Positions 2-16,006 are shown, counted from the first letter of the stretch. The stretch: DNA of 19,176 nucleotides from Candidatus Latescibacterota bacterium (GCA_038279365.1 JAYODI010000076.1:8848-28023); one strand, 5' to 3'. Numbers and translations are program-made. Notes: generated by a model from the sequence alone, not told the origin.

Positions 2-1576
2 CAAATCAGGTGGCGACGGCACAACATCAACTGGCACACTGGCAAATACAGTATTATTTGTTTCATTGGTTTCTGTTTCAATGTTACTTGCATCTGCTAT
101 AGCCACCAGACGATAGGTACCAATGGCTTGTTGCGACGGAATGGTCATTGAAAAAGCAACAGCCTTTCGATCACCAGAGTTCAAAATATCCGTAACAGTG
201 GTATTGCCAACGCGCACGTCATCTGCATTGCCAATCGAATCATCAACACTAAGCCATAACGAAACCTGAAAAGCACCCGTTGTTACACCGTCACCTTGAT
301 TAACCACATCTAAACGAACATCATACACATGACTGCGTTCGACAGGTGTACTGGCAACCACATTTTCGACAACAAGATCAGGAGGAGATGGCACCACTGA
401 TACCGCCAAACCAATAAGCGCATTATTTGTCTCATTTAACTCAGACACAAAACCCACTTCATCAACAACTGCAATCCATTGATACGAACGATAAGCTTGT
501 AATGCAGGAATGGTCACCTGCACCGTGACAGCCCGTGTCGAATCGACGCCCAATACACCACTAATGGCCGCATCACCCACCCGAATGTCATCTCCATTGC
601 CCACTATCAGATCTTCACTTAAAAAAATAACCACATCAAAATCACTGGTATTGGTACCCGTTCCTTGATTTTTAATTTGTGTCGTTACAGCATACGTTCC
701 CCTGCGATAAACACCATTTGGCCCAGAAGGGGGTGCCGAAACAATCAAATCGGCCAACTTTTCAACCACCACCGTCGCATTGCCAACCCGCAAATTATTT
801 GTCTCTTGCGACTCGCCCTCAACATTGGCAACATCAATCACGGCCAACCATTGAAAATTTCCAAGTGTATGGCTTGAGGGAATGACCACTGAAAGTTGCA
901 CCGTACGCGATGTATTTTCAAAGACCTTGTCGCTCACAGTTGTGCGCCCCACTTCCACATCGGAACTGTCTCTGATGCTGTCTGCACTTAAAAATATGGC
1001 AATCTCAAAGGCATTTTGTGTGGGACCCGCCCCTTGATTTTTAAAATCGAGGGCAAGCGTATAATTGCCATTTAAATTGACTTCGGCGGGTCCTGTAGGC
1101 CCAGACGTAAGCACCAAATCGGCTGGTGGCGCAACAACCTGTACATCGTTTCCCACACCTACATTGTTGTTTTCATTTGACTCTGCAATTAAATTGGCCC
1201 CATCTACCTTCGCCAACCACTTATACCCACCCAATGTCAGCAAGGAAGGGACACGCACAGGTATTTTTACCGATACAGAATCACCCGGAATCAATACAGA
1301 AGCAATTGCAACATCGCCCACTGCACGATCCCCCACATCCAAAAGTGTATCCGCACTGAGATAAACCGTGACATCAAACTGCGTTTTTACGGTGTCAGCA
1401 CCCGTATTGTGCAAAGTTACAGATACAGTATCATTTTGGGATCGAATGACTTGCAAGGATCCCAAAGGACCTTGAGACAGGGTCAAATCGGGTTGTGTTT
1501 GACCATAGGCCCAATTTGGAAAACCGATACAAACCAATATCGTAATACCAACAACCACCCAAAACCGTTTTGGCAT
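2..1576 (-). CDS. Secreted/cell-surface protein with tandem CARDB (Ig-like) domains; 3' end lies beyond the window
   Basis: Manual translation: ATG at 1576 preceded by GAGGG, open for 525 codons to the window edge. N-terminus MPKRFWVVVGITILVCIGFPNWAYG-QT resembles a Sec signal peptide. It is followed by 123-124-aa repeats with pattern (P/A)DL...N(Q/T)G...F.(V/I)...LS.D...D..VG...P...E.(N/Q)E.NN, typical of CARDB. Confidence 0.9.
   Translation of the reverse strand, partial: MPKRFWVVVGITILVCIGFPNWAYGQTQPDLTLSQGPLGSLQVIRSQNDTVSVTLHNTGADTVKTQFDVTVYLSADTLLDVGDRAVGDVAIASVLIPGDSVSVKIPVRVPSLLTLGGYKWLAKVDGANLIAESNENNNVGVGNDVQVVAPPADLVLTSGPTGPAEVNLNGNYTLALDFKNQGAGPTQNAFEIAIFLSADSIRDSSDVEVGRTTVSDKVFENTSRTVQLSVVIPSSHTLGNFQWLAVIDVANVEGESQETNNLRVGNATVVVEKLADLIVSAPPSGPNGVYRRGTYAVTTQIKNQGTGTNTSDFDVVIFLSEDLIVGNGDDIRVGDAAISGVLGVDSTRAVTVQVTIPALQAYRSYQWIAVVDEVGFVSELNETNNALIGLAVSVVPSPPDLVVENVVASTPVERSHVYDVRLDVVNQGDGVTTGAFQVSLWLSVDDSIGNADDVRVGNTTVTDILNSGDRKAVAFSMTIPSQQAIGTYRLVAIADASNIETETNETNNTVFASVPVDVVPSPPDL
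11..1492 (-). repeat. Four complete intragenic CARDB repeats (369, 369, 372 and 372 nt); a fifth starts at 10
   Basis: PDL/ADL motifs start at 1492, 1123, 754, 382 and 10. Similarity is clear in protein and weak in DNA. Confidence 0.85.
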
Positions 1577-1633
1577 AGTACCCTCAACACAGCAAAACAC
1601 CACCAAACACAACAATATGGTGTGCAGATCGTC

Positions 1634-1662
1634 ATTATAAATAAATACCGAACGAAAATGAA
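1634..1662 (-). promoter_or_regulatory. Candidate proximal sigma70 promoter for the CARDB gene
   Basis: Minus strand TTCATT (1662-1657), 17-nt spacer, TATAAT (1639-1634). Perfect -10, weak -35. Confidence 0.45.
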
Positions 1663-1666
1663 AGTG

Positions 1667-1762
1667 AGCGTGACATGACCTATCCAAACGCCATGCGCCA
1701 ATCGAAGGGGTACGACGGTGCAAAGCAGTGAGAACGGGGCGTTCTCCTAGATCAAATACGCC
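1667..1762 (-). ncRNA. Candidate structured leader RNA or small RNA (three-way junction)
   Basis: Hand-folded: closing stems GGCGU/ACGCU and UGAUCUA/UAGGUCA enclose hairpin GAGAACG-CCC-CGUUCUC (1746-1730) and an imperfect hairpin (1726-1690) with loop UACCCCUU. It starts just downstream of the 1802-1774 promoter. No known family recognised. Confidence 0.3.
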
Positions 1763-1773
1763 TGATAATGATT

Positions 1774-1802
1774 AAGATAAGCCTTTGTTTTTTTTAAGTC
1801 AA
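1774..1802 (-). promoter_or_regulatory. Sigma70 promoter (distal) directed toward the CARDB gene
   Basis: Minus strand TTGACT (1802-1797), 17-nt spacer, TATCTT (1779-1774). Confidence 0.65.
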
Positions 1803-1830
1803 GCTGTACCCTATAACCCATAAGCCCAAG

Positions 1831-1859
1831 TTGACATTCGTAAGCCCCACACCTATATT
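1831..1859 (+). promoter_or_regulatory. Sigma70 promoter of the NTT-HEAT / cNMP / secretin operon
   Basis: TTGACA (1831-1836), 17-nt spacer, TATATT (1854-1859). Near consensus, 45 nt upstream of ATG 1905. Confidence 0.8.
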
Positions 1860-1904
1860 TCTTTTGCTAAAATTTGCCCCATCCGTCTTCAACCTGAAAA
1901 AAAC

Positions 1905-4658
1905 ATGCCGTTATTAACCCTATCGCTCCAAGACAGATCTCGCTTTATATGGGTGACATTGGCCTTTATGTGTGTCACGTCAGCGGCATTGGTTGCACGT
2001 ACCACTGCAGACACGCTCTTTTTGTCTCAATTTGGTTATGAACATCTGTCTTATATGTACTTGGGCACAGCAGTTGTCGTCAGCACAGTTGCCTTTATTT
2101 ATAGTTCTTTGATTGGTCGCCTGTCTGTTGTGCGCCTAATTGGATTGAGCATCGGATTTTTGATGCTGATTTTGATCCTGCTGCGCATCGGACTCACTTC
2201 TTCTTGGAAGGGTGTTTACATCATTGCCTATTTTGCGGGTGACCTCATCGTCCATGTGCCCATCATGCTATTTTGGAGCTTTGCTGTCCTCTTATTTGAT
2301 CCGCGTCAGGCCAAACGGCTCTTTGGTTTTATCGGTGCTGGTGGAACGCTTGGATGCATTTTAATTGGCATCGTTATCAAACCCATTGCCTCCGCTTTTG
2401 GTACCCCCACATTAATTATACTGATTTTCGGTTTGCTTACCTGTTTTCTGCTCATTACCTTGCGCTTATCGCAAACAGAAGCACAACGATTTACCCTCCC
2501 AAAGCAGCCTCGCCTCCCCCAATCTCAACTTCAACAATATTCCCGACACATCAAAACGCCTCAAATCAGATATCTCATTGGACTTGTATTTATTGCCAAT
2601 ATTGCTTTAGCACTTATTGACTACCAATTTAAAGCCGGAGCACGTCAACATTATACCGTACATGAACTGGCTGGATTTTTTGGTAATTTTTACGCATACA
2701 CCAGCATTGTAGCACTCTTTATACAGCTTTTTCTGGTACACCAAATCCTCAACAAAGGGGGCATCAAGTTGGGGTTATGCCTTTTGCCCATAGGAATCTT
2801 GGTGGGCAGTATCGGCACGCTGATAACCGCCCAATTCTCATGGATATTGGGCACAAAAGCCATTGTTCAGGTTTTTTTATTCACCATTGACATTGCCGCA
2901 CTCCAAATGCTATACATGGGCATACCTATCGCTTCGCGCAATCAAGCACGAGCATTTGCCGACGGCATTACCAAACCCATAGCAATAGCAACTGCCGGCA
3001 TTGGTCTTATTGGTCTTGCCCAACTTCTTCCATTGCATCTATTGGCAATAGGTGGCACCATCTTATCCATTTTATGGCTCTTGTTGGTCCATACCAACAG
3101 CAAAGCTTATGTCTCTGCACTCATAGACTCCTTGGGGACCAAACAGTTTGATCTCACACAGGAAACCGCTCAGTTTCAAGACATTACAGTGGCCTCATAT
3201 GTAAGAGAAGCCTTGCAAACCTCTCCCGATGGAGACATCATCTATTTACTTAATATGACGCAGGACATACCTCAAATTGACTGGACAGAAGAATATCGAC
3301 ACCTAATTAACAAAGAGTCACCAGAAATAAAAATATTGGCCATTCGGCATTTAAAAGAAAAAGGCAACCAAACAGATGCCAATACACTCATACCACTATT
3401 AGAACATACAAATTCCAAAGTGCGCAGTGAAGCCATTCGGGCCCTATCCACATTAGGATCTCCAGATATCATCTCAAACCTTACGCCCTATCTGCATGAT
3501 CCAGATCTTCGCGTTCAAGCTGCGACCATTGCAAGTTTGGTCAATGCTGGTGACCTGGATCAACTGATCGATGCGGGCATTGCATTGAGGCAACTTTTAA
3601 ACGCCGATAAAACATCTCACAGAGTTGCAGCAGCACATGCCTTGGCCGATATTAAAGATTCTGTTTTGCACCGAGCTTATATCGGCTTATTACAAGATCC
3701 AAAACCAGAGGTTCAGCAAGCGGCTTTGACATCTTGCCGTGCCCATCCCGACCCTAAATTGTTACCTATTTTAATTCCATTATTGTCAAATCCAGAAATT
3801 GGCCTAACCGTTGCCGATGTCTTGGCTGGTTTTGGTCACTCCGTACGCGATAAACTCGTGCCTCTACTCATTCCCCAAAACAATGAACCTGCATTTTCGG
3901 GGGTTCATCTCATCCCACAAATATTGGTTGCCATAGGTGACACTTCGATACTGCCAGTTTTATATCAAGCATCAGATACACCAAACCACCTCTTGCGCCA
4001 CAACGCCTTACAAGCTTATGCGAGCCTGCTCAAAAAATTATCCACACATAAGCCCTACCTTTCAGAAATCTACGCGCAAATTCAAAAAGAAATGTCATTG
4101 GCCCAACACCGCAAAAAACAAATAATAAGCTTGGCCTTAACACCACAAACACAGTTGTTGCGTGACGCGTTCGAGAATATTCAAATGCTCCATCTCAAAA
4201 ACGCCTTTGCACTCATAGATGCGCTCTTGCCCACAATGAACATATTGACCATTCGAGATACATTATTGCGAAACGACAAAACTCAGAATAATGCCCTTGA
4301 AATTTTGGACAATGTATTACCCAAACAATGTAAGCAAGAAGTCATAGTTTTTTTTGAATCAGGCAATCAAAAACCAACCCAAACTGATCCCATAGCTTTT
4401 GACCAAATATTGTCAAAAGAAGAAGATATTTGGGTTATTTGTGGTGCGCTCATGGCCATTGCATCCTTAAAAACCCCAATAGATGAATATTTACTCCTAT
4501 CCAATCTAACACATCCCCATCCTGTCGTTAGAGAGACAACACTTTATACATTGCGCGAACAAAATAAGTTACACATATTTGACAATCAATATCACACACT
4601 CTTAGAAGACCCTGACGAAAGCGTGAAAATGTTGGCCCATCAATATTTAAAAAAATAG
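1905..4658 (+). CDS. NTT/TLC (Npt1/Npt2-like ATP/ADP or nucleotide exchanger, MFS fold) transporter fused to C-terminal HEAT repeats
   Basis: About 400 N-terminal aa with roughly 12 hydrophobic segments and motifs FWSFAVLLFDPRQAKRLFGFIGAGG, LIDYQF, LAGFFGNF and LYMGIP..SR..ARAFADG. Then HEAT/PBS-lyase-like repeats (LIPLLEHTNSKVRSEAIRAL, LHDPDLRVQAATIASL, LLQDPKPEVQQAAL, LTHPHPVVRETTL). Confidence 0.85.
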   Translation: MPLLTLSLQDRSRFIWVTLAFMCVTSAALVARTTADTLFLSQFGYEHLSYMYLGTAVVVSTVAFIYSSLIGRLSVVRLIGLSIGFLMLILILLRIGLTSSWKGVYIIAYFAGDLIVHVPIMLFWSFAVLLFDPRQAKRLFGFIGAGGTLGCILIGIVIKPIASAFGTPTLIILIFGLLTCFLLITLRLSQTEAQRFTLPKQPRLPQSQLQQYSRHIKTPQIRYLIGLVFIANIALALIDYQFKAGARQHYTVHELAGFFGNFYAYTSIVALFIQLFLVHQILNKGGIKLGLCLLPIGILVGSIGTLITAQFSWILGTKAIVQVFLFTIDIAALQMLYMGIPIASRNQARAFADGITKPIAIATAGIGLIGLAQLLPLHLLAIGGTILSILWLLLVHTNSKAYVSALIDSLGTKQFDLTQETAQFQDITVASYVREALQTSPDGDIIYLLNMTQDIPQIDWTEEYRHLINKESPEIKILAIRHLKEKGNQTDANTLIPLLEHTNSKVRSEAIRALSTLGSPDIISNLTPYLHDPDLRVQAATIASLVNAGDLDQLIDAGIALRQLLNADKTSHRVAAAHALADIKDSVLHRAYIGLLQDPKPEVQQAALTSCRAHPDPKLLPILIPLLSNPEIGLTVADVLAGFGHSVRDKLVPLLIPQNNEPAFSGVHLIPQILVAIGDTSILPVLYQASDTPNHLLRHNALQAYASLLKKLSTHKPYLSEIYAQIQKEMSLAQHRKKQIISLALTPQTQLLRDAFENIQMLHLKNAFALIDALLPTMNILTIRDTLLRNDKTQNNALEILDNVLPKQCKQEVIVFFESGNQKPTQTDPIAFDQILSKEEDIWVICGALMAIASLKTPIDEYLLLSNLTHPHPVVRETTLYTLREQNKLHIFDNQYHTLLEDPDESVKMLAHQYLKK

Positions 4659-4706
4659 AAATTGCCCTTTTAAATCTGCCAACAAATAAACCCGAATGAT
4701 CTTATT

Positions 4707-5138
4707 ATGATACTTGTACAAAAAATACTTTTTCTAAAAAATGTGCCCCTCTTTTCAAGTATGCCTCCAAGTGACTTAAGCCACTTGGCAAAGATCGCGG
4801 AAGAAATCATCTATCAAACAGGTGAAACAATTATCACACAAGGCGAACATGGAGAACGTCTGTATCTCATTGTTCATGGTACCGTATCGGTGCTACAAAA
4901 TGGTTCGCCCGTTGCCACACTGTCCGACACACATTTTTTTGGCGAGATGAGCATTTTAGATGGTGAACCTCGTTCGGCATCGGTAAAAGCCACATCAGAC
5001 TGCCTTCTTTTAAGTATCAGCAAAGACGATTTTTATACGATATTAAGCCGTTACCCCAAAGTATCTTTACATATTATTCGCACACTGACCCAACGCCTAC
5101 GCCAAACCAACCAAACCGAACCATCCAAACAGGAATAG
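4707..5138 (+). CDS. Stand-alone cyclic nucleotide-binding (cNMP) domain protein
   Basis: LKNVPLFS, IITQGEHGERLYLIVHGTV and phosphate-binding cassette FFGEMSILDGEPRSASV. No C-terminal CRP helix-turn-helix. Confidence 0.92.
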   Translation: MILVQKILFLKNVPLFSSMPPSDLSHLAKIAEEIIYQTGETIITQGEHGERLYLIVHGTVSVLQNGSPVATLSDTHFFGEMSILDGEPRSASVKATSDCLLLSISKDDFYTILSRYPKVSLHIIRTLTQRLRQTNQTEPSKQE

Positions 5139-5144
5139 TCCGTT

Positions 5145-7613
5145 ATGACAGGCACGCTTACCAAATATATCAGATTGATTTTTTTGGCAGCCTTACTGTT
5201 TGTGCCAACAAACTCCATATTGGCGCAATCAACATATTCCACACCTTCAATAATATGGACATCACCTTATCGATCTCTTACCAAAAACCAAGAGCTAATC
5301 GATACCTTCATAGCCAAAATCACTGTTTACTTTAATTACTACGAAATCACCCCCGTACCAAGCAATGCCCGCTTGATTCAAATCCAAGGCATGGCCCAAC
5401 AGCGCTATTTAATAAAAAAGGAACCCAATGGTGCCACTCGAAACATTGAACTTGGGCTTATGGCATTTCCAGAAGGTGGGTTTGAAATATACCTTTATGG
5501 ACAAGAATTTTATGCCGATGGTTCATCACAACACAACCCCGACCTGGCTCAAATCCAAAGCATATTCACACAAATAGAACAAGAAATAAAAACACAACAA
5601 GATAACCCTGGTGTAGATGCTTTAGATTATCAGATTTATCACCTTAGTTATGTGCAAAGCGACCGTGCTATAGCCCTACTCAAATCATTGGGATTTACAA
5701 CTGTTGAATACACTCAGGTATTGGGCGAAACACCTTTTGATAAAATTTACACACCCTATCAAAATGGCCAGTGGAAGTTGCCCGTTATCATTAAACTCAT
5801 CGATGCCAATAAAACAAGCTTAATGGACGCTCCCCCCACAGTCCAATACCAACAACAACAACAGCGCTCACAATATTCTGCCGTACCAGATATTGGTGGT
5901 ACCTATTTGCACAACACCACAGCGGGAGAACCCCAACAACGCTTGCTGATTGCATATAATAAAAACCAGCCCGAAGTTGCAGAGCGCCTGCTTACACTCT
6001 TGAGAGATAAAATAGACAGACCTGCTCGCCAAATTGTTATAGAAGCCTTGGTCATAGAAGTAAACACAGATAAAATTCAAGAATTGGGCATAGATTTACG
6101 GGCCGCAGACAGTGACTATGATGTGTCTTTTGAGCAGGATCAAAACGGCAACGATCTGCCCTTTTCTTTTTCGTTTAACAGAAATGCCTTTAGTAATATT
6201 TTGTTTTTCCGTAGCAAACTAAGTGCACTGGTCACTGCTGGTGACGCCGAAATATTATCCAGCCCATCCGTATTGGTTTTGGACGGGAGACAAGCAAGAA
6301 TTCAAGTGGGCCAGCAAGTCCCGGTGGTCAAATCTACATCTACAAATGCCGGTATCATCTCATCAGTTGAATATTTCCCTGTTGGCATTGTCTTAAACCT
6401 TCGCCCACGTCTTAGCGAAGATGGTACAGAAGTCACCATGCAAGTTGAAACCATTGTCAGTGCCGTAAGCCAAACCGCAGGTGCACAAACTGAATTCTTT
6501 GTGGCCCCTACCGTCGACAACCGACAAGTTCAAACCTTTGTGCGGGTTGCAGATAACACACCCTTTATTATTGGAGGACTCATATCAAAAGATGTCCGTC
6601 AAAAAACAAGCAGTGTCCCCATATTGTCAGATATCCCCATTTTAGGTAATGCTTTTAAACGGAAAAATTCGGACAATGTCAAAAAGGAAGTCATTGTGGT
6701 TCTCACACCACATGTGATGCCACTGGACGAAGACAACTTTAGTTATGTCATTCCCAAAGACTCTGACATATTTAACTCATTTGACAACATTCTCTTTCGC
6801 AATGCCTATCGCATTCGAGATGACGACGTCTTTGATCTCAAATTTATTTATGAGAGCAACTTTTTTCAAAAGTTGCTTACCGAAGTCAACTTGCAAGTGG
6901 ACATGAACCCCCTATTGCATACCCAAGAACCTTATGCCCAACTTTTAGATGGTGCCGTTCCAGGCGAAGAAATTCTTGTTCGCAGAATGATTTGGGAACT
7001 GGCTCACAAAACGGGCTTTTCCAACCACATAGATGACGCTCGAATTATTGTTTTTGAAGACAAACCTGACGCGCCAGATAGCAGTGGATTTAGAACAGCC
7101 TTTACGCACCAGTTGTTGGCACAACGCCAACAAAATGGACACAACACGCTCGAACTGACATTTGATGCCCGCTTTAATGGCTCAGAGGAACATCCGTTTG
7201 CCCAACCCAAGGCATCTATTGGCTACCTAGACATTCAAAGTCCTACAGACTATGTAACGCGTTTGATGGTGGGTAATCAACGCAGCCCAGATGGCACGCC
7301 AAACAAATGGACGGTATTGCTTTCCGATACAAATCCTCCAGGTGTTCGCAGAGCTACCACGATGGAAGTACTGAAAGGGGTGTTGGTATTAAAACGTATT
7401 TTGGCACTTAATAAAACACTTCCATTAACGGTTAAAGAATTTCGTGTGGGGCGTCAACTGATCTTCCCTACAGAGCAAGACTTGGAACAGCGCTATCATA
7501 TTTTAGACAGAGATGCCGCTCGTTATTTCTTTGAAGTGATTCAATATTACCCAGAATTTGAAAAATCATTTAACATTGAAACTCGGAAAATTTTGGAACA
7601 ACTTCAAAAATAA
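5145..7613 (+). CDS. Secretin (GspD/PilQ-like outer-membrane channel) with a single N3-type domain and a long C-terminal extension
   Basis: Signal peptide (...LLFVPTNSILA-QS). N3/NolW-like YHLSYVQSDRAIALL...IDRPARQIVIEALVIEV. Secretin core ILSSPSVLVLDGRQARIQVGQQVPV, VGIVLNLRP, PFIIGGLI, VPILSDIPILGNAFK, EVIVVLTPHVM (ends near aa 525). About 297 further aa unassigned. Confidence 0.9.
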   Translation: MTGTLTKYIRLIFLAALLFVPTNSILAQSTYSTPSIIWTSPYRSLTKNQELIDTFIAKITVYFNYYEITPVPSNARLIQIQGMAQQRYLIKKEPNGATRNIELGLMAFPEGGFEIYLYGQEFYADGSSQHNPDLAQIQSIFTQIEQEIKTQQDNPGVDALDYQIYHLSYVQSDRAIALLKSLGFTTVEYTQVLGETPFDKIYTPYQNGQWKLPVIIKLIDANKTSLMDAPPTVQYQQQQQRSQYSAVPDIGGTYLHNTTAGEPQQRLLIAYNKNQPEVAERLLTLLRDKIDRPARQIVIEALVIEVNTDKIQELGIDLRAADSDYDVSFEQDQNGNDLPFSFSFNRNAFSNILFFRSKLSALVTAGDAEILSSPSVLVLDGRQARIQVGQQVPVVKSTSTNAGIISSVEYFPVGIVLNLRPRLSEDGTEVTMQVETIVSAVSQTAGAQTEFFVAPTVDNRQVQTFVRVADNTPFIIGGLISKDVRQKTSSVPILSDIPILGNAFKRKNSDNVKKEVIVVLTPHVMPLDEDNFSYVIPKDSDIFNSFDNILFRNAYRIRDDDVFDLKFIYESNFFQKLLTEVNLQVDMNPLLHTQEPYAQLLDGAVPGEEILVRRMIWELAHKTGFSNHIDDARIIVFEDKPDAPDSSGFRTAFTHQLLAQRQQNGHNTLELTFDARFNGSEEHPFAQPKASIGYLDIQSPTDYVTRLMVGNQRSPDGTPNKWTVLLSDTNPPGVRRATTMEVLKGVLVLKRILALNKTLPLTVKEFRVGRQLIFPTEQDLEQRYHILDRDAARYFFEVIQYYPEFEKSFNIETRKILEQLQK

Positions 7614-7629
7614 AAGAAATCTACCAAAT

Positions 7630-7668
7630 TTAAAAAGCCCTTGGGAAGTAATCCCAAGGGCTTTTTAA
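7630..7668. terminator. Bidirectional intrinsic terminator between the convergent secretin and flagellin-like genes
   Basis: Perfect 17-bp inverted repeat TTAAAAAGCCCTTGGGA-agtaa-TCCCAAGGGCTTTTTAA, giving a T5 tract on both strands. Confidence 0.92.
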
Positions 7669-7688
7669 GTTGTCATTGCGATGTCTTT

Positions 7689-8483
7689 TTACCCCAACAA
7701 ATTTAAAACCTGTTGTCGATTTACATTTTGCTGGGATAATACCGAAATACTGGCTTGTGTTTGTATCCGTTGACTGGCCAACAAACTGGTTTCTAAAGCC
7801 ACATCAGCATCTCGAATAACCGACTCTGAAGCCTGCAAATTTTCCAGGGCCTGTTCATTGGATCGAATGGCAAACCCCATTCTGCTTTGTAGCACACCCA
7901 TATCACTGCGCTGAACAGATACTTGAGCAATGGCATTGTCAATTGCAGACAGTGTTTGTTGGGCCCCTACTTGTGTGTCAACAGATCGCCCATTCAACCC
8001 CATCTCTGGCCCGCTTGCCCTTAAAATATCAAGTTCAATTTGGTTGCCTTCACCAGGATTGGGACCAATTTGAAAAGAATGGGATCCACCAGATGCGGTT
8101 TGAGCCAAGCGATCCATCTCAGATGTTAATTGGGCAAATTCCGTTTGAATACTTGCCCGATTGGCATCCGTTATGCCAGAGCTTACCGCTTGTACTGACA
8201 GCTCACGCAACCGATCCAAAATAGAATGGGTTTGTGCCAAGGAACCCTCTGAAACTTGCGTTTGGTTGATTGCAAGTTCTGAATTCCGAATTGCTTGGAC
8301 AAAACCAGATATATTGGCCCGCATGCCTTCACTTTGAACCAAACCTGCTGCCTGATCGGAAGCCTGATTGATTTGTAACCCCGAAGCCAGCTTTGAAATA
8401 CGAGCAGACAATGCCCGATTGTTCACTTTTAATGACTTTTGCAATCCAATATCGGAAGCATCCATACGAATTCGAAGCGACAT
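7689..8483 (-). CDS. fliC: Minimal flagellin / flagellin-like protein (D0-D1 only), divergent
   Basis: N-terminal MSLRI...KLASGLQINQASDQAAGL...EGSL...ILDRLRELSVQA, central FQIGPN, C-terminal IDNAIAQVSVQRSDMGVLQSR...ENLQASESVIRDADVALE...QQVLNLLG. RBS-like AAAGGGA upstream. Confidence 0.9.
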   Translation of the reverse strand: MSLRIRMDASDIGLQKSLKVNNRALSARISKLASGLQINQASDQAAGLVQSEGMRANISGFVQAIRNSELAINQTQVSEGSLAQTHSILDRLRELSVQAVSSGITDANRASIQTEFAQLTSEMDRLAQTASGGSHSFQIGPNPGEGNQIELDILRASGPEMGLNGRSVDTQVGAQQTLSAIDNAIAQVSVQRSDMGVLQSRMGFAIRSNEQALENLQASESVIRDADVALETSLLASQRIQTQASISVLSQQNVNRQQVLNLLG

Positions 8484-8640: not shown

Positions 8641-10377
8641 TTATTTTTCTCCAGGTTTTCGATATTTGGCCGCATAACTGTCCCCTTCTGCATCATAAGA
8701 AACACGCACTTCGCCATTGACTATGCCCAAGCGCGGAATACTCCGGTTACGTGCATCTCTTTCTGGGCCACGCATCAAAGAAAATTGCTCTTCTGTCATA
8801 TCCTCTACCATATCCCCCCAGCGGTCTTTCGGATCGACAACGCCGCCCCCCCAGTTGGAATTTCGAGACTGATACTTGATCAAAACACCACGGCGAGGTA
8901 TTGGATTTTTCCATGCCAAAGCACCGTGAGTACACCCACCATCCATAAAAAACAACACATCTCCCGCCTTCATAACGGGTTGTACCACCAACCCCATTGT
9001 CTCATCACAAGTACGGATGCCAGGTGGCATCGCATATTGGGTTTTGTGACTGCCTGGAACAGCAGCAAAACCACCCAAATCGGGCTCTACATCGCGCAAT
9101 TGCCAAGTAATGGTTACCGTTTCTGCATAGCTGCGACCATTTTTAAAATAATATCCACGTGAAGGACTCATCGGTTCATTGCCATCGTGCAATGCATGGC
9201 CCGATGTTCCTTCTACGGCACAAAAAACCGTTGCACCTCCAGTTCGATACCCACTTCCTTTCATCCAATTAAGGCGCTGTACAACAGCAGGATGGGCAAT
9301 CATTTTTCGAAAAGGTTCATTGTAAGGATCCGGCAAATCCAAAAGCCCAGACAACAATGGCCGTCCGGTTCCTGCCTGACTTTTTGATCCCCGTGCAAGT
9401 TCCGAACCGACAACCACCTTATCTTGAAACCGGTCTACAGCTTCATTTGCTTTTGCCAACCAATCTGCATCCATTACATTAGGTACAACCAAATATCCAT
9501 TCAAATCCCAAAAGTAAAATTCTTTTTCATCAATACCTGAATTTGGGTTTTTGATATAAATGGAGGGGTGAATGACATCTGTGCTTTCCTCAACCCACGT
9601 TTTTTCACCATCCGTATTCAACATCGGCGGTGGATTGGAATCGGCAGAACCTGGCCTATTCAAAACAGCACCTTGCTCGGGCGGAGCATGTTTTGTCCAT
9701 TCTGGTAAATAGGCTTCATCAGCACCCTTCCCTGGCCCATTAGATTGTATCGCTGCACGGCCTGCATACCAATACGTTAACAGCCTTTTGGGTTGTTTTG
9801 TCCATGGCAACATCCCTTGCAAAGTGGTTTCCGCCAACAAAAACAGATCGCCGGCCTTCAAAACTGGTTGTTTTACCAAACCCATATCATCTTTTAAGGT
9901 GATCAAATCAGTGGGGGTTTCCACATTGCTCTTATGACTGGCTTGCACAACATGGAGGCCCCCATCTCCGGCATTCACATCTTCTAAAACCCAAATGGCT
10001 TTCAATCCTTGGCAAGAACGTCGATTCTTTTGAATATAATATGCCCGTGCAGGATCTCTTGGTTCATCCCCACCAGACAAAACTGTTTTTATTTCGCCCT
10101 CACATCCACCCAATAACCGAGGCGCTTGGTCTAAGCGAAATCCATGTCCAATCAGTTGATTCAAATACCACACCAATTGTGGGTGCACCAACAAATTGCG
10201 AAACAACTCACGGTGTTCTTTTTCCCACCCCAACATGCCTTCCACCTTTCCCACCGCATCTAAGGCCTGATTGAGCGCTGTCACTTCTCCTTTATTTAAA
10301 ACACCGGGAATATGTAAATAACCCGCAACATCGAATGCATAATTTTCTTCATTGCTCATTTCTTCTCGATCCATCAC
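8641..10377 (-). CDS. Tandem two-domain PhyH (phytanoyl-CoA dioxygenase-like Fe(II)/2OG) family protein
   Basis: Internal duplication: FDVAGYLHIPGVL / WDLNGYLVVPNVM; GGLHVVQASHKS / GGFAAVPGSHKT; MGLVKQPVLKAGD / MGLVVQPVMKAGD. RBS AAGGAG precedes GTG 10377 / ATG 10374. Confidence 0.88.
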   Translation of the reverse strand: MMDREEMSNEENYAFDVAGYLHIPGVLNKGEVTALNQALDAVGKVEGMLGWEKEHRELFRNLLVHPQLVWYLNQLIGHGFRLDQAPRLLGGCEGEIKTVLSGGDEPRDPARAYYIQKNRRSCQGLKAIWVLEDVNAGDGGLHVVQASHKSNVETPTDLITLKDDMGLVKQPVLKAGDLFLLAETTLQGMLPWTKQPKRLLTYWYAGRAAIQSNGPGKGADEAYLPEWTKHAPPEQGAVLNRPGSADSNPPPMLNTDGEKTWVEESTDVIHPSIYIKNPNSGIDEKEFYFWDLNGYLVVPNVMDADWLAKANEAVDRFQDKVVVGSELARGSKSQAGTGRPLLSGLLDLPDPYNEPFRKMIAHPAVVQRLNWMKGSGYRTGGATVFCAVEGTSGHALHDGNEPMSPSRGYYFKNGRSYAETVTITWQLRDVEPDLGGFAAVPGSHKTQYAMPPGIRTCDETMGLVVQPVMKAGDVLFFMDGGCTHGALAWKNPIPRRGVLIKYQSRNSNWGGGVVDPKDRWGDMVEDMTEEQFSLMRGPERDARNRSIPRLGIVNGEVRVSYDAEGDSYAAKYRKPGEK

Positions 10378-10394
10378 ACGCTCCTTTTGTCACA

Positions 10395-11054
10395 TCATTT
10401 TTTAGATGACCTTTTGTGCTTTAAAAGCCACTTGAAAAATTCGGGATCATCATACGTTTCTGTCCAAGAATCGTGACCAGCTTCAGGATAGACTGTAAAC
10501 TTCACATCACCATCAAACTGCTTCATAAACTTCACCAAGCGATCAGATTCTTCTATTGGTACTGTGGAATCTTTGGCACCATGAAAAACCCATGTGGGTA
10601 TTTTGGCTTGAGAAATCCGACGTGCCTGTTGGCGCGTGCCGCCACCACAGATGGGTGCGATAGCGGCAAAACGGTTTGGGTAGTCACCCGCCAAAGCCCA
10701 GGTGCCATACCCGCCCATACTTAAACCCGTTACATAAATACGATCTTCATCCACATGATGCTTTGCCACAATCTCATCAACCAATGCCATAAGTCCATCG
10801 GGCTTCCACCAACTTTCTTCAGGACATTGGGGAGACACCAAGATGAAAGGTAGTTTTTGACCTGCTTCAATCAATTTGGGCGGCCCATGTTTGGTCACCT
10901 TATCCAAATCGTTCCCTCGCTCCCCTGCGCCGTGTAAAAAAAGCACCAAAGGCATCTTCTGTTGAGCGCCATCACCTGGCAAATACAGCAAATAATTAAG
11001 GGCATATATTTGTGTGATCTTTTTGGTAAAGGATTCTGCTGTTTGTTGTCTCAT
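10395..11054 (-). CDS. Alpha/beta hydrolase (phospholipase/carboxylesterase or peptidase S9-like)
   Basis: PLVLFLHGAGERG, nucleophile elbow TGLSMGGYG, FHGAKD (Asp), AGHDSW (His). RBS GGAGG. Confidence 0.9.
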   Translation of the reverse strand: MRQQTAESFTKKITQIYALNYLLYLPGDGAQQKMPLVLFLHGAGERGNDLDKVTKHGPPKLIEAGQKLPFILVSPQCPEESWWKPDGLMALVDEIVAKHHVDEDRIYVTGLSMGGYGTWALAGDYPNRFAAIAPICGGGTRQQARRISQAKIPTWVFHGAKDSTVPIEESDRLVKFMKQFDGDVKFTVYPEAGHDSWTETYDDPEFFKWLLKHKRSSKK

Positions 11055-11097
11055 ATCGCCTCCACTATTTGTGATGTCTCAACAGATCTCAAGCACG

Positions 11098-11131
11098 ATC
11101 GCCATTGGATCCAGGCATATCCAATGGCGAT
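11098..11131. repeat. Perfect 13-bp inverted repeat in a divergent intergenic region
   Basis: ATCGCCATTGGAT-ccaggcat-ATCCAATGGCGAT; no flanking U-tract. Confidence 0.8.
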
Positions 11132-11161
11132 GCAATCACTTGTTAAAAGTAAAAAAAGCCA

Positions 11162-11190
11162 TTGACGAAAATTGCAAATCACTCTATTCT
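11162..11190 (+). promoter_or_regulatory. Sigma70 promoter of the inositol-dehydrogenase-like gene
   Basis: TTGACG (11162-11167), 17-nt spacer, TATTCT (11185-11190). Confidence 0.7.
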
Positions 11191-11243
11191 TGCACGATGC
11201 AACATCATTTTTATTCATCTCCACTCACAACAGGACACAACAG

Positions 11244-12329
11244 ATGAACAAACCTATTAAAATGGCAGTTATTGGTGTTGGCCGCATTGGTGTTTTTCAC
11301 GCAAAGCACGTACAAGAACTCGCACGAGAAACTGGAAAATGCGAACTGGTTGCCGTTGTGGACACATATAGCGATACGGCCCAACGCGTAGCCAAACAGC
11401 TCCAAACAGATCAAGACACTCCCATCCAAGCCTTTAACTCTGTCTTAGACCTGGCCAAAGCAAACCTCATAGACGGTGCCTTAATTGCCTCTCGTACAGA
11501 CGACCACGAACCCGATGCACGCACATTAATAGATGCAGGATGTCGTGTCTTACTCGAAAAACCCCTGACCCACTCACTCGAATCGGCACAAAAATTGGTC
11601 GCATATCTCAATGCCGACAAAACAAAAAGCCAGGCCCTGATGCAAGCTTTTATGCGGCGCTTTGATGCCCCATTGGTGAAGGCCAAAACACTGCTTGAAC
11701 AAAATGCCATAGGCAACATCTTCAAAATCACTTCCATTCTTGAAGACCCTGCACCTCCTCCTGTGGGCTATAACAGTCCAGGGCTTTTGACAGATATGTC
11801 CGTTCACAACTGTGACGAAATCTTGTGGCTCTTAGATGGCCCATTGCCCGAATATGCTGCCGCCTTTGGATCTAATCTACACAACACCTTTGTGAGCCCC
11901 GTTGTGGAAGATTATGACGATGCCTTTTTGCAAATGTGGTTTCCCGGAAACTTAGTTGGACAAGTACAGGTGAGCAGAAACCATGTGGCCGGATATCGCA
12001 ACGAATCTTGGATATTTGGCGACAAAGGGGTCATTCATGTGGGTAACTTTCAGGAAAACCCACTTCGCGTGACCGTAGAAGCCTATGGCCCATCGGGCGT
12101 TATTGCAAAAGAAACGTTCGCCCTTCGCGATTATGGCGATGATGTACCTGTGTTCATCAAACGCTTTGGCGAAGCCTATAAAAACGAACTCAATTACTTT
12201 CTCGACCAGTGTCTTGCAAACGCCCCCTTTAGCGTTACCCACGAAGATGGCCTTAACGCGATGCGGGTTGCCCTTGCAGGCACTGCGGCCATCAAACCAA
12301 AAGAAAATGCATTAAAAATCGAAAACTAA
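11244..12329 (+). CDS. Gfo/Idh/MocA family oxidoreductase, myo-inositol 2-dehydrogenase-like
   Basis: Rossmann motif VIGVGRIG, LLEKP, MRRFD, DP.PPP..Y, GLLTDMSVH, RFGEAY..EL..F. Start moved from 11172 to ATG 11244 (CAGGAC upstream; the ORF-track start lies inside the promoter). Confidence 0.88.
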   Translation: MNKPIKMAVIGVGRIGVFHAKHVQELARETGKCELVAVVDTYSDTAQRVAKQLQTDQDTPIQAFNSVLDLAKANLIDGALIASRTDDHEPDARTLIDAGCRVLLEKPLTHSLESAQKLVAYLNADKTKSQALMQAFMRRFDAPLVKAKTLLEQNAIGNIFKITSILEDPAPPPVGYNSPGLLTDMSVHNCDEILWLLDGPLPEYAAAFGSNLHNTFVSPVVEDYDDAFLQMWFPGNLVGQVQVSRNHVAGYRNESWIFGDKGVIHVGNFQENPLRVTVEAYGPSGVIAKETFALRDYGDDVPVFIKRFGEAYKNELNYFLDQCLANAPFSVTHEDGLNAMRVALAGTAAIKPKENALKIEN

Positions 12330-12367
12330 ACCCATCTTAAAATGGCATGAAAAGGTGACGCCTCTTG

Positions 12368-13225
12368 TTAACAAGTCACATCTTTACCTTCATTGCCAAA
12401 AACGGCCAAACGCGCATTGGAATCAATCGTTTCTACAGATGACGGAACGTAATGCAACTGCAATGCTCGCCTCCGTTTTTCTGATCGATTGGCAGGTGTA
12501 CCATGGTGCAATCGCCCATGCCACAACAAAACCCCACCGGGTTTGAGGGGCACTGCAATAACGCGATTTTTGGCCACATCGGTATCGCAGATTTGCCAGT
12601 CACGGCGATTGAAGTGTACTACGGGGCCCTCTAAGTGGCTTTGGGGAATGATGCGCATACACCCATTTTCTGCCGTTGCCTCATCCAATGCCACCCAGGC
12701 GCTGACAATGCATGTATCAAGAGACAAATTGAAATATGCATGGTCTTGGTGCCAAGGTTTTTCACGACCAATACCGGGGGGTTTGAGCATGGCCTGGTTG
12801 GCAAAAAGCGTGGGCGGTTCTCCCATGATGCGCGTTAAAATATTCAACAACAGATTGTCTTCTCCAAACACATCCAACCGAGAATCAAACCCGACAAAGC
12901 GCGTGAGTTTTCTCACCAAAACCTCACGCGCTTCACCCGCCTCTTGTGCACCACGATCTCGAATGCCCTTTTCAAATTGTACCCCATTAAAACCTTCTTT
13001 TTGCCCCGCTATCAAATCTGCCACTGCCTCCATAGCCCCTGCAACAACCTGAGAGGAATAAGCATGTTCTATAGCCAAAAAACCTTGTACATGAAACTGG
13101 GCAATATGTTCATCTGTAACTGCATCAAACCCGTCAATAACAGAAGCAACACCCGTAGGTATATATAAATTGGGGTCATAGCTTTCTGGACCATATTGAT
13201 CTTCGAGAAAATCTACTTTCTCCAT
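12368..13225 (-). CDS. PhyH family Fe(II)/2-oxoglutarate dioxygenase
   Basis: FHVQGFL, KPWHQD (HxD), SAWVALDEATAENGCM.IIPQSH, LHHGTPANRSEKRRRA. ATG 13225 preceded by GAGGAG. Confidence 0.92.
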   Translation of the reverse strand: MEKVDFLEDQYGPESYDPNLYIPTGVASVIDGFDAVTDEHIAQFHVQGFLAIEHAYSSQVVAGAMEAVADLIAGQKEGFNGVQFEKGIRDRGAQEAGEAREVLVRKLTRFVGFDSRLDVFGEDNLLLNILTRIMGEPPTLFANQAMLKPPGIGREKPWHQDHAYFNLSLDTCIVSAWVALDEATAENGCMRIIPQSHLEGPVVHFNRRDWQICDTDVAKNRVIAVPLKPGGVLLWHGRLHHGTPANRSEKRRRALQLHYVPSSVETIDSNARLAVFGNEGKDVTC

Positions 13226-13270
13226 ACACACTCCTCAGTTAAAAACATCACCAAGATCACAGGAGACACC

Positions 13271-14059: not shown

Positions 14060-14070
14060 GCCCTTATATT

Positions 14071-15977: not shown

Positions 15978-16006
15978 CAAAACCTCCCCTTTGCCAGACA
16001 ACTTGG

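Follow-up and report, generated by a model that had tools for sequence, protein, structure and literature searches.

An operon of an NTT/TLC-like carrier, a cyclic-nucleotide-binding protein and an orphan secretin is conserved across two phyla

To our knowledge, secretins are known solely from T2SS, T4P/competence, Tad, T3SS and filamentous phage, systems in which either a filament or a folded protein is driven through the secretin. PMC6668835 describes them as the outer-membrane component of these systems. A separate protein family, NTT-HEAT with an adjacent or fused cyclic-nucleotide-binding domain (cNBD), was described by Major, Embley & Williams in 2017 (PMC5381601); according to that paper, characterised NTT carriers import or exchange nucleotides, and its main text has 0 occurrences of the word 'secretin'. 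Marine work has also reported dissolved cAMP and bacterioplankton that take up cAMP with high affinity (Ammerman & Azam 1981/1982, as cited in PMC4103542).

Here we analysed a 19,176-nt stretch of DNA from a Candidatus Latescibacterota bacterium (GCA_038279365.1, JAYODI010000076.1:8848-28023; the window), in which two genes matching NTT-HEAT with an adjacent cNBD precede a secretin gene. What sets this locus apart from NTT-HEAT as described is a distinct carrier subclade that is inherited with a secretin and, in one clade, also with a predicted periplasmic phosphodiesterase (PDE). The operon might be related to marine cAMP uptake, as it combines a protein resembling nucleotide carriers with a cNMP sensor and, in that clade, with the predicted PDE.

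Anatomy of the operon

Three genes follow one another on the plus strand: an NTT/TLC-like carrier with a HEAT tail (1905-4658; 917 aa, from ORF and Pfam), a stand-alone cyclic-nucleotide-binding protein (4707-5138; 143 aa, cNMP_binding 79.3 bits) and a secretin (5145-7613; 822 aa). Their coordinates leave gaps of 48 nt and 6 nt, and ORF and Pfam analysis confirmed the co-orientation, spacing and domains that the original prediction had claimed. The near-consensus promoter that it had placed ahead of them, a sigma-70-like TTGACA-17-TATATT (1831-1859, plus strand), matched at 11/12 positions and was the sole match of at least 11/12 in the whole window. First-order Markov simulation yielded 0.44 matches of this quality per window and 0.004 in the 328-nt spacer on the operon strand, and both hexamers are kept in G068, a genome of the same genus. 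The total of promoter-like sites in the window equalled that expected by chance (21 versus 21.2). On the minus strand, a candidate divergent promoter (TTGACT-17-TATCTT, 1774-1802) matched at 9/12 positions and sits within a conserved motif, TAAGCCTTTGTTTTTTTTAAGTCAAG, that is identical in G068 and partly retained in L049. The gene divergent to the operon (2-1576, minus strand) encodes a secreted multi-CARDB protein with four CARDB stretches and a signal-peptide-like N-terminus. Of the back-to-back arrangement claimed earlier, the secreted protein was upheld and the promoter reduced to a 9/12 candidate.

Downstream of the secretin, a hairpin at 7627-7671 serves as a bidirectional intrinsic terminator common to the secretin gene and a convergent gene for a short flagellin (7689-8483, minus strand; 264 aa, Pfam Flagellin_N and Flagellin_C), as had been proposed. 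Its 20-bp stem folds at -31.8 kcal/mol (z = -7.3; 0 of 200 shuffles folded equally well), and an A-run on its 5' side and a T-run on its 3' side make it able to serve both genes. The hairpin was not picked up by the consensus scan; a homologous one is present in G068, at the locus without the secretin. By Pfam, the 15 ORFs of the window include no member of an ATPase, platform or pilin family, consistent with the claim that genes of the secretin machines are missing here. We read the three co-oriented genes as one conserved operon; the metatranscriptome contigs found for it were unbridged.

The carrier and the cyclic-nucleotide-binding protein

The carrier consists of a 12-TM part (residues about 1-440), in which reading by eye gave twelve hydrophobic segments, the inside loops being positively charged, and a HEAT-repeat tail (about 440-917; HEAT_2, 102 bits). 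Its Pfam TLC match is partial (32.1 bits against a cut-off of 21, covering profile positions 147-369 of 491), and it scored 27.8 against TIGR00769, for which the cut-off is 387.2. We class it as NTT/TLC-like, a putative nucleotide carrier with a partial and weak TLC match. NTT-HEAT(-cNBD) is defined by TLC fused to C-terminal HEAT and by a cNBD that is either fused as well or encoded next to it, a composition found here.

The 143-aa protein bears PF00027, has no signal peptide and contains FGEMSILDGEPRSAS, which we take to be the phosphate-binding cassette (Gly-Glu, Arg-Ser/Thr-Ala) of the cNMP_binding domain. The Arg of this stretch is lost in some cNBDs of the Opitutae-labelled clade, and a cNBD gene was not seen in 13 linked loci. 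In a related locus, L038, the cNMP-binding protein is fused to the carrier, which matches the three-domain fusion described for NTT-HEAT. Complex prediction scored the HEAT tail with the cNBD at 0.47 compared with 0.01 for the best control, a result that the tool itself rates as weak support; three runs shared at least 94% of contacts, with a partner pLDDT of at least 76. The mark used was reached by 116 of 157 solved complexes and by 2 of 215 mismatched pairs, and only 18 of the 116 reached it at 0.60 or less.

The secretin and its C-terminal domain

The secretin comprises a signal peptide (residues 1-27), a domain resembling KA1/BamC-N (about 34-152; Z about 7-8), a candidate N1-like ring-building motif (about 159-219), a Q-rich disordered linker (about 222-261), an N3-like region to residue 355, the secretin domain (PF00263, 361-525; 145.7 bits against a cut-off of 27.5) and, within the roughly 290 further residues, a C-terminal domain (530-822). 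It matched 21 solved secretins at E <= 1e-5, the best being 6hcg_A (GspD/PulD; E 2.8e-23), with which residues 358-536 align; in the structural model, of overall pLDDT 68, residues 130-268 resembled the EscC periplasmic domain (Z 7.2, rmsd 2.0 over 68 residues). The protein is predicted to form a multimeric outer-membrane pore. It resembles GspD/PulD in its beta-barrel domain and Sec signal peptide, and may do so in the candidate ring-building motif ahead of the barrel. Unlike GspD, it has the KA1/BamC-N-like domain in the place of N0, no N0 domain being recognised in the window's secretin, and a 290-residue C-terminal domain instead of the short S-domain; the alignment with TIGR02517 begins at residue 288. 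It shares the secretin domain with PilQ, but Pfam found no AMIN domain in the window's secretin, N-terminal AMIN domains occurring in some members of its family. Two HofQ models scored 65-68 against cut-offs of 554 and 598; by analogy with HofQ, a role in the uptake of nucleic-acid-derived material is conceivable.

The C-terminal domain (6732-7610, plus strand) had no Pfam match, and no solved chain aligned past residue 536. Searched against 1.84 billion proteins, a profile of the domain retrieved 365 representatives at E <= 0.001. Its AlphaFold2 model attained a pLDDT of 89 and a pTM of 0.86 and had no match in the PDB (best Foldseek E 0.5, best VIA Z 5.0). The domain is conserved and has no known fold.

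Secretion and pilus machinery in genomes with the triad

We examined five genomes carrying the triad: G000, which contains the window, G045, G074, G073 and G070, two of them on a single chromosome. The window's secretin is the sole Secretin match in the 98.5%-complete G000, and G045 (= G001) likewise has one. T2SSF had no match in G000, G074, G073 or G070, and its sole match in G045, of 26 bits, is broken by two stop codons. Peptidase_A24 (prepilin peptidase) was found in none of the five. T2SSE was detected in G000 (69 bits), between MscS and TamA/TamB genes and with no pilus genes adjoining; no match above cut-off was found in G045, G074, G073 or G070. FliP is single copy in G000, G073, G070 and G045 and absent from G074, and no equivalents of PilB, PilC or PilD of T4P were found in the triad genomes. 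Because these five genomes gave no usable platform match and no prepilin peptidase, the secretin is not a displaced GspD or PilQ, and its designation as an orphan holds.

Assignment to each of the known systems was rejected on its own grounds. As GspD of a T2SS, the secretin scored 156 bits against the TIGR02517 cut-off of 351.35, and the GspE/GspF/prepilin peptidase set was not found; as PilQ of T4P, it scored 118.8 against 284.35 (TIGR02515), with AMIN, platform and peptidase all missing. For Tad RcpA/CpaC there was no TadB/TadC-type T2SSF, the CpaF-family T2SSE was represented only by the 69-bit match in G000, and RcpA (8odn_A) matched over the barrel only (E 2.2e-19). For SctC of T3SS the score was 103.4 against 238.45 (TIGR02516), with FliP single copy or absent, and for phage pIV no pI/Zot-type ATPase or coat genes were present in the 15 window ORFs or the conserved neighbours.

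Linkage and co-inheritance

Among 78 metagenome loci with a secretin ORF, drawn from 80 loci that were retained from 159 confirmed matches, the NTT-HEAT carrier and/or the cNMP gene lay directly upstream in 51 and not in 10, and the contig edge intervened in 17. Dereplication at 90% identity over all sources gave 36 linked groups, 18 unlinked and 3 at an edge; with 36 of 54 informative groups linked, in two phyla, the neighbourhood conservation that the original prediction had proposed to check was found. The same triad was present in three of the four genome-collection loci having upstream sequence, and a phylum scan located the carrier and the secretin C-terminal domain 3-5 kb apart on the same strand in G000, G073, G070, G047, G045, G074, G042 and G043. 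By source label, the carriers belong to Latescibacterota-like bacteria and marine Verrucomicrobiota (Opitutae). Records named 'marine metagenome' and NCBI records labelled Opitutae account for many of the related loci.

On the secretin tree, the linked state occurs to either side of the midpoint root and requires 5 changes, compared with 17.1 in shuffles. A branch of the carrier tree with 98% SH-aLRT has all 23 of 23 linked carriers and two orthologs without secretin on one side, the window's carrier among the linked ones, and 20 of 20 unlinked same-phylum paralogs on the other. In their major clades, the carrier tree and the secretin tree agree. Gene order is retained across two phyla at 21-25% carrier and about 48% C-domain identity while the flanks vary, and the triad also persists between different flanks in L009, in L037 and in loci labelled Verrucomicrobiota. 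Triad genes are usually 6 nt apart or overlap. The Latescibacterota-like loci do share flanks, with CARDB/NHL upstream and HEAT-like, two-component, NrdR and RNR genes downstream. G068 has kept the carrier and cNBD, is missing this secretin at the locus and encodes a family member elsewhere in the genome (L029); G046 has retained the carrier alone. One unlinked secretin clade of 12 rows lies among housekeeping genes, between pntAB and gltBD, with a small conserved lipoprotein of about 145 aa encoded directly downstream in the position of a pilotin, a gene that the window's operon does not have. Carrier and secretin are co-inherited, with a linkage that goes beyond local synteny yet is not obligatory.

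A predicted phosphodiesterase in Opitutae-labelled loci

In all 23 of 23 Opitutae-labelled loci with at least 300 bp downstream, a PDEase_I gene (PF00233; 182.6 bits in L109) lies 5-90 nt 3' of the secretin on the same strand. The encoded N-termini have a hydrophobic stretch ending in Cys in 20 of 20 listed and match a lipobox regex in 16 of 21, suggesting that the product is a periplasmic lipoprotein, predicted to be a class I 3',5'-cNMP phosphodiesterase. A PDEase_I search of G000, G045, G074, G073 and G070 gave no match, and control genomes likewise gave none. The gene after the secretin differs by clade: an EF-hand protein follows in 10 loci, and the cluster typified by L008:10521-11507 has 5 members (combined clustering), at least 3 of them signal-peptide-like by eye. 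In the window, no secreted-protein gene lies 3' of the secretin, which is followed only by the terminator.

Proposed function and alternatives

We tentatively propose that nucleotides, most probably 3',5'-cyclic ones or the products of their hydrolysis, cross the two membranes by a route that the operon encodes and the cNMP receptor gates; we favour this reading as a possible one without expecting it to prevail. The secretin would be a multimeric outer-membrane pore working without pilus, pseudopilus or secretion ATPase, and its C-terminal domain would stand in for the S-domain and pilotin, with a possible role in gate control as well. The solute would cross the inner membrane through the NTT-like 12-TM carrier, whose cytoplasmic HEAT tail would dock the cNMP-binding protein, tuning transport to the cell's cyclic-nucleotide level. 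The cyclic-nucleotide theme fits a cNBD gene placed between carrier and secretin and a predicted PDE in the same operon of one clade. From the gene content we infer a common substrate of secretin and carrier, its identity and the direction of transport; within the two-membrane model, uptake is slightly favoured over efflux. The original prediction had offered an outer-membrane channel plus an inner-membrane nucleotide carrier under cyclic-nucleotide control as one of its readings, which fits the data and has gained the predicted PDE of the Opitutae-labelled operons as new support, and which we retain as a proposal. Against a two-membrane route, the operon has no gate-opening component and the secretin is unlinked in 18 dereplicated groups. 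The pore of a secretin is far wider than a nucleotide requires, and we know of no secretin that serves small solutes. By eye, the carrier's periplasmic loops are all short, which makes it unlikely that the carrier is physically connected across the periplasm.

If the parts of the triad do cooperate, a secretin can be run without a piston, the carrier family described in 2017 gains a testable function, and these genes become candidates for how marine bacteria and seawater exchange cyclic nucleotides. A bolder version, which we consider doubtful, is a further secretin-based envelope machine without pilus or ATPase, in which a novel C-terminal ring that controls ligand or assembly would be coupled to the NTT-like carrier so as to move 3',5'-cyclic nucleotides over both membranes. 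A cNMP receptor in the cytoplasm would belong to this machine, as would a class I PDE in the periplasm of marine Opitutae; it might be the basis of marine dissolved-cAMP uptake or exchange and the first NTT-HEAT function. Even with shared regulation only, a secretin family without pilus or secretion machinery, with its own novel domain kept over long evolutionary time in genomes without known secretin machines, would still stand, as would the predicted periplasmic class I PDE.

The same components might instead work outwards, the cNBD sensing a high cytoplasmic level, the carrier exporting the cyclic nucleotide, the secretin releasing it as a signal or for clearance and the PDE trimming the pool. 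Export of cAMP through both membranes is known from E. coli, feed-forward export would suit a carrier whose tail bears a cytoplasmic sensor, and the PDE is predicted to lie outside the cytoplasm. However, a periplasmic PDE would destroy the exported product before its release, and a 330-Da anion needs no outer-membrane pore of secretin size. Characterised NTT carriers are importers or exchangers (PMC5381601), and we rate efflux as rather improbable. Protein export through a minimal pore, with a neighbouring secreted protein as cargo (the PDE lipoprotein, the EF-hand protein, the unnamed secreted protein or the CARDB/NHL giants) and the carrier-cNBD pair only regulating or conditioning export, would be in keeping with the signal-peptide- or lipobox-like N-terminus of the clade-variable gene after the secretin and with the CARDB/NHL proteins divergent in 8 loci. 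All secretins known to us pass folded proteins or filaments, and pullulanase is a precedent for a lipoprotein as cargo. In contrast, the five triad genomes have no platform, pseudopilin-processing peptidase, injectisome or cargo-pushing ATPase, the window's secretin is followed by a terminator rather than a secreted-protein gene, the CARDB/NHL genes persist without the secretin, and we know of no role in protein export for an MFS-type carrier; we rate such export as improbable too.

Co-regulation without a shared substrate, in which the secretin would be an autonomous outer-membrane protein (a gated large channel or structural ring) captured into a cNMP-controlled operon and passed on together with it, would explain the family members without a carrier in 18 dereplicated groups, including the pntAB/gltBD clade, and the loss of the operon copy in G068 with a member kept elsewhere. 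Gene order kept at 21-25% carrier identity over two phyla while flanks changed, the agreement of the two trees at major clades, and the usual 6-nt gaps or overlaps speak against it, and we consider it unlikely. Conservation by chance or as purely historical synteny among close relatives would be compatible with the flanking genes common to the Latescibacterota-like loci, but the triad survives changed flanks and recurs across phyla, making this very unlikely indeed. A GspD, PilQ, RcpA or SctC displaced from a T2SS, T4P, Tad or T3SS elsewhere in the genome could account for GspD being the best NCBIfam similarity (156 bits), for sources naming members GspD or CpaC, and for the T2SSE-like ATPase of G000 and the T2SSF genes of G002, G003 and G004. 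Yet every NCBIfam secretin model scored far below its cut-off; usable T2SSF and Peptidase_A24 are missing from the five triad genomes; the lone ATPase, between MscS and TamA/TamB, is absent from G045, G074 and G073; T2SSF-bearing genomes own further secretins, one of which adjoins a T2SSF gene in G003; and FliP is single copy or absent. This possibility is largely refuted and hardly credible.

Flanking genes

The CARDB protein extends past the left edge of the window, and the CARDB/ASH-Ig and NHL/CARDB ORFs that follow it measure 2366 aa or more. A CARDB/NHL cluster is divergent to the operon in 8 loci, every one of them in the Latescibacterota-like clade, and absent from the Verrucomicrobiota-labelled loci; it stays beside the carrier in two genomes without the secretin at the locus (L027 and L028). 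The CARDB protein does not belong to the core and is a neighbour specific to one lineage, and the other original reading, a dedicated route for its export, was not sustained. The flagellin, too, is a neighbour rather than part of the module, and it was found at three closely related loci: L010, L027 and the window.

A predicted three-gene operon between one promoter and one terminator

Three co-oriented genes on the forward strand encode a carrier (917 aa; 1905-4658), a cNMP-binding (cNBD) protein (143 aa; 4707-5138) and a secretin (822 aa; 5145-7613), hereafter the triad, and their coordinates leave gaps of 48 and 6 nt, as originally predicted. Domain searches likewise recovered every part that had been named: the carrier gave strong HEAT repeats and a TLC/NTT match that is partial (32.1 bits against a cut-off of 21, covering profile positions 147-369 of 491), the cNBD protein a cNMP-binding domain (79.3 bits), and the secretin a Secretin domain (145.7 bits, residues 361-525) with about 290 residues after it. 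On the reverse strand, the operon is flanked by genes for a multi-CARDB protein with a signal-peptide-like N-terminus (2-1576) and a short flagellin (7689-8483).

The near-consensus promoter proposed for the operon, TTGACA-17-TATATT at 1831-1859, is the sole match of at least 11/12 within the window, for which a Markov simulation gives expectations of 0.44 per window and 0.004 in the operon's spacer on that strand, and both of its hexamers are conserved in a genome of the same genus. Promoter-like sites in the window as a whole are at chance level. The back-to-back promoter proposed for the CARDB gene fared less well: a site is present, but it matches the consensus at just 9 of 12 positions. 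A motif in this divergent region, TAAGCCTTTGTTTTTTTTAAGTCAAG (1776-1803), is identical in the same-genus genome G068 and partly conserved in locus L049, and may be a regulatory site common to the CARDB gene and the operon. At the other end, the single predicted terminator was recovered as a hairpin of 20 bp (7627-7671; -31.8 kcal/mol, z = -7.3) flanked by an A-run and a T-run on opposite sides; it can terminate the operon and the convergent flagellin gene alike.

Four metatranscriptome runs from one study, with 5-7% of sampled words present, were also compared with the window. Run X1 yielded contigs of at least 99% identity on the carrier (3078-3332), secretin (5362-5512, 5563-5713 and 6837-6987) and flagellin genes; X4 covered the carrier and flagellin, with a 93%-alike piece on the secretin; and X2 and X3 covered the flagellin and no other gene. 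Because these contigs are short and shallow, none bridges two genes and DNA carry-over is possible, they show neither transcription nor co-transcription.

The secretin ends in a conserved domain without known relatives among solved structures

The secretin begins with a Sec-type signal peptide, and solved secretins align to it only at residues about 270-536. A model of residues 30-355 (pLDDT 68) suggests, in order, a confident alpha/beta domain with middling resemblance to KA1 and BamC N-terminal domains (Z 7-8), a motif aligning with the N1 domain of EscC (Z 7.2, 68 residues at rmsd 2.0), a Gln-rich disordered linker and an N3-like region. No N0 domain was recognised in this N-terminal region, for which Foldseek returned nothing at E <= 0.001, the best match being the BamC N-domain at E of about 0.01.

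The 293 residues at the C-terminus (530-822; the C-domain) are conserved and predicted to adopt a confident fold (pLDDT 89, pTM 0.86). The C-domain has no Pfam match, and comparison with solved structures found none similar (best Foldseek PDB E 0.5; best VIA-wide Z 5.0, with short helical or LysM-like pieces only). Among 1.84 billion proteins, its profile matched 365 representatives at E <= 0.001, 290 of them at E <= 1e-10; among the matches listed, it nearly always occupies the C-terminus of its protein, which is about 650-2000 residues long, and each family member in a separate listing also has a Secretin domain. A likeness to Helicase_C_4 from an ESM Atlas feature search (best score 0.89, low recognition) was treated as noise.

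Linkage of the triad is conserved beyond close relatives

We call a secretin linked when a carrier and/or cNBD gene lies directly upstream on the same strand. A secretin scan of the genome collection gave six loci, and the triad stands in the same order in three of the four having upstream sequence, L011 being the exception. Across the phylum, 47 of 168 genomes have the C-domain, and the coordinates of that scan and of one with the carrier's membrane part place carrier and C-domain 3-5 kb apart on one strand in G000 (the window's own genome), G073, G070, G047, G045, G074, G042 and G043, even where identity to the window falls to 42-43% for the C-domain and 37% for the carrier (G042 and G043). 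A metagenome scan with the C-domain alignment as query confirmed 159 matches; the best 80 of these 159 include 78 loci with a secretin ORF, comprising 51 linked (35 with carrier and cNBD, 13 with carrier only and 3 with cNBD only at a contig edge), 10 unlinked and 17 cut at the secretin. Dereplicated at 90% identity across all sources, the secretin lies beside a carrier or cNBD gene in 36 groups, with 18 unlinked and 3 at an edge (29, 6 and 3 for groups with metagenome loci), in line with the proposed association, in counts that are biased in that the 80 metagenome loci are those most similar to the query family and the 20 phylum loci were hand-picked, 12 of them from an unlinked clade. The linkage is conserved far past close relatives: the window's relatives are labelled Latescibacterota (Gemmatimonadetes in older records), and a large metagenome clade, linked throughout, is labelled Verrucomicrobia or Opitutae.

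On the secretin tree (like the carrier tree, a quick LG+G4 search, unrooted), the linked state occurs on both sides of the midpoint root and requires 5 changes, versus 17.1 in shuffles. Unlinked clades are sister to, or nested within, linked ones, suggesting an old link lost on several occasions. On the carrier tree, built from membrane domains, a branch with 98% SH-aLRT separates all 20 unlinked same-phylum paralogs from the full set of 23 linked carriers and two orthologs with no secretin at their locus, and the linked carriers split into Latescibacterota-like and Verrucomicrobiota-labelled groups as on the secretin tree. Carrier and secretin were therefore inherited or transferred together.

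Some loci count against a tight functional unit. G068 has the CARDB, carrier (73% identical) and cNBD genes but no secretin there: its flagellin gene lies 170 bp past the cNBD gene (L027:10290-10500), and this gap holds only a terminator homologous to the window's, with no secretin remnants seen in it. A distant secretin-family member is found elsewhere in G068 (L029) and in G067, and not in G000. Another genome, G046, has a carrier without cNBD or secretin. The unlinked secretin clade of 12 rows (L030-L046, for example L032:10746-11204) lies between pntAB (transhydrogenase) and gltBD (glutamate synthase); directly 3' of its secretin is a conserved lipoprotein (about 145 aa, without a Pfam match) in a pilotin-like placement, which is possibly a pilotin.

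A cyclic-nucleotide theme in sensor and phosphodiesterase

The window's cNBD protein retains the stretch FGEMSILDGEPRSAS, which we take to be an intact phosphate-binding cassette. In L038 (11241-14387, reverse strand), the window's first two genes are naturally fused: directly upstream of the secretin lies a gene for a carrier-HEAT-cNBD protein, 1048 aa or longer, with its reading frame still open where the contig ends. This matches the adjacent or fused arrangement of NTT-HEAT and cNBD described in 2017 in the part of that work consulted (PMC5381601), the main text of which does not contain the word 'secretin'. A complex of HEAT tail and cNBD protein was predicted at 0.47, versus 0.01 for the best control, in runs with at least 94% of contacts in agreement and partner pLDDT of 76 or more. 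By the tool's own rating this is weak support: 116 of 157 solved complexes reached the mark, as did 2 of 215 mismatched pairs, but only 18 of the solved complexes reached it with a score <= 0.60.

The most informative new fact on this theme concerns the Opitutae-labelled loci (L100-L126, for example L109:6533-7897). In all 23 of those with 300 bp or more past the secretin, the next gene, on the same strand and after a gap of 5-90 nt, is a PDEase_I gene (182.6 bits). The L109 protein contains HDVLHCGVSN, which fits the class I phosphodiesterase (PDE) signature; source records name these proteins 'hypothetical protein' or '3',5'-cyclic nucleotide phosphodiesterase'. All 20 PDE N-termini inspected have a hydrophobic segment ending in Cys, and a lipobox regex matched 16 of 21; by inspection, the PDE is thus predicted to be a lipoprotein outside the cytoplasm, and a periplasmic class I PDE seems unusual in bacteria. 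A PDEase_I search of G000 and four relatives gave no match, as in control genomes. In part of the Opitutae-labelled clade (L090, L093, L121 and L123), the cNBD no longer has the Arg-Ser/Thr-Ala of its binding stretch, and no cNBD gene is seen in 13 linked loci; where the PDE is present, the cell may be able to do without the cNMP sensor. Together with the unlinked clade, these loci argue against a tight functional unit.

A candidate nucleotide route and its alternatives

The original prediction of a secretin without a partner machine held up in Pfam-type searches of five triad genomes, which found no secretin-less T2SS/T4P locus. G000 (98.5% complete, 7.4% contamination) has one Secretin match and, genome-wide, no T2SSF and no Peptidase_A24. 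Its one T2SSE-like gene (69 bits) lies between MscS and TamA/TamB genes, with no platform, pilin or pilus genes nearby; this ATPase (C104; L048:8807-10309) has an HTH_17-like stretch at its N-terminus. G045, G074, G073 and G070 have no T2SSE above cut-off and no Peptidase_A24; the last three have no T2SSF match, and that of G045 scores 26 bits only and contains two stop codons. The G045 chromosome is one record, with a single Secretin match, and G074 is a single contig, 100% complete. Four of the five genomes have a single copy of FliP and G074 has none, so no second type III apparatus is present. T2SSF and further secretins are present in G002, G003 and G004, and in G003 a secretin adjoins the T2SSF gene. 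With Peptidase_A24 absent from all five, T2SSF limited to the stop-containing match of G045, FliP single or absent and NCBIfam scores far under their cut-offs (GspD 156 versus 351 bits, PilQ 119 versus 284, SctC 103 versus 238), we rejected a displaced T2SS, T4P, Tad or T3SS secretin, the probability of which is practically negligible. Chance synteny is contradicted by the 36 linked groups and the shared carrier and secretin histories, and is very improbable.

Tentatively, we read the operon as a two-membrane nucleotide route. The secretin would be the conduit through the outer membrane, perhaps gated by its C-domain; the NTT-like carrier, with its short periplasmic loops, would provide the step across the inner membrane; and the cNBD protein, docked on the HEAT tail, would be the regulator. 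The likely solute would be cyclic nucleotides or their products. The weakest point is the secretin pore, which is oversized for a nucleotide and the opening of which this reading leaves unexplained. Efflux or signalling could use the same parts, including the sensor, and is a slim prospect; uptake is favoured because the NTTs that have been characterised are nucleotide importers, and because a PDE in the periplasm ahead of an importer is reminiscent of known periplasmic nucleotide processing. Co-regulation of genes with no common substrate would sit with the unlinked groups and with G068, and the conserved gene order and co-inheritance stand on the other side; we consider it unlikely. Export of neighbouring secreted proteins could draw on another Verrucomicrobia-labelled clade (L059-L070, for example L064:8308-9387), in which a signal-peptide-bearing, Pro/Lys-rich EF-hand protein follows the secretin, and on some Latescibacterota-like loci with an unnamed secreted protein in that place; the window has none, comparison of CARDB neighbours across loci did not support the proposed export route for the CARDB protein, and we regard export as distinctly unlikely.

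The operon's parts are members of known families. In open-access full text and bioRxiv, no account came up of a secretin associated with an NTT-HEAT or cNBD gene, or of a secretin family lacking a partner machine. Searches there gave no paper joining 'outer membrane secretin' with 'cyclic nucleotide-binding', none among the matches listed with secretin and Latescibacter together, and 'orphan secretin' only in animal peptide signalling; the part of a TFF-superfamily survey consulted (PMC6668835) treats secretins solely as components of filament systems. The combination, a secretin lacking a partner machine, bearing a new domain and inherited along with a carrier and a cNMP sensor, matches no described secretin system and is a candidate new system. 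Reports cited in the part of PMC4103542 consulted describe cAMP dissolved in seawater and its high-affinity uptake by marine bacteria, and the triad genes would be candidates for this physiology.

Other neighbouring genes

In L059-L070, clostripain-like (Peptidase_C11) and FG-GAP proteins are encoded on the other strand past the EF-hand gene. To the left of the window (G000:C70:1-8811; L047), two ORFs lie past the CARDB gene on the same strand, one of 556 aa with CARDB/ASH-Ig domains and one of at least 2366 aa with NHL/CARDB/Ig domains, which runs off the contig; the three ORFs may represent separate genes, or a single giant surface protein interrupted by frameshifts. Within the window, 8641-16945 densely encodes three PhyH-type dioxygenases, two GFO/IDH/MocA oxidoreductases, an alpha/beta hydrolase, a xylose-isomerase-like TIM barrel and a polysaccharide deacetylase, and looks like a catabolic or modification island with no relation to the operon.
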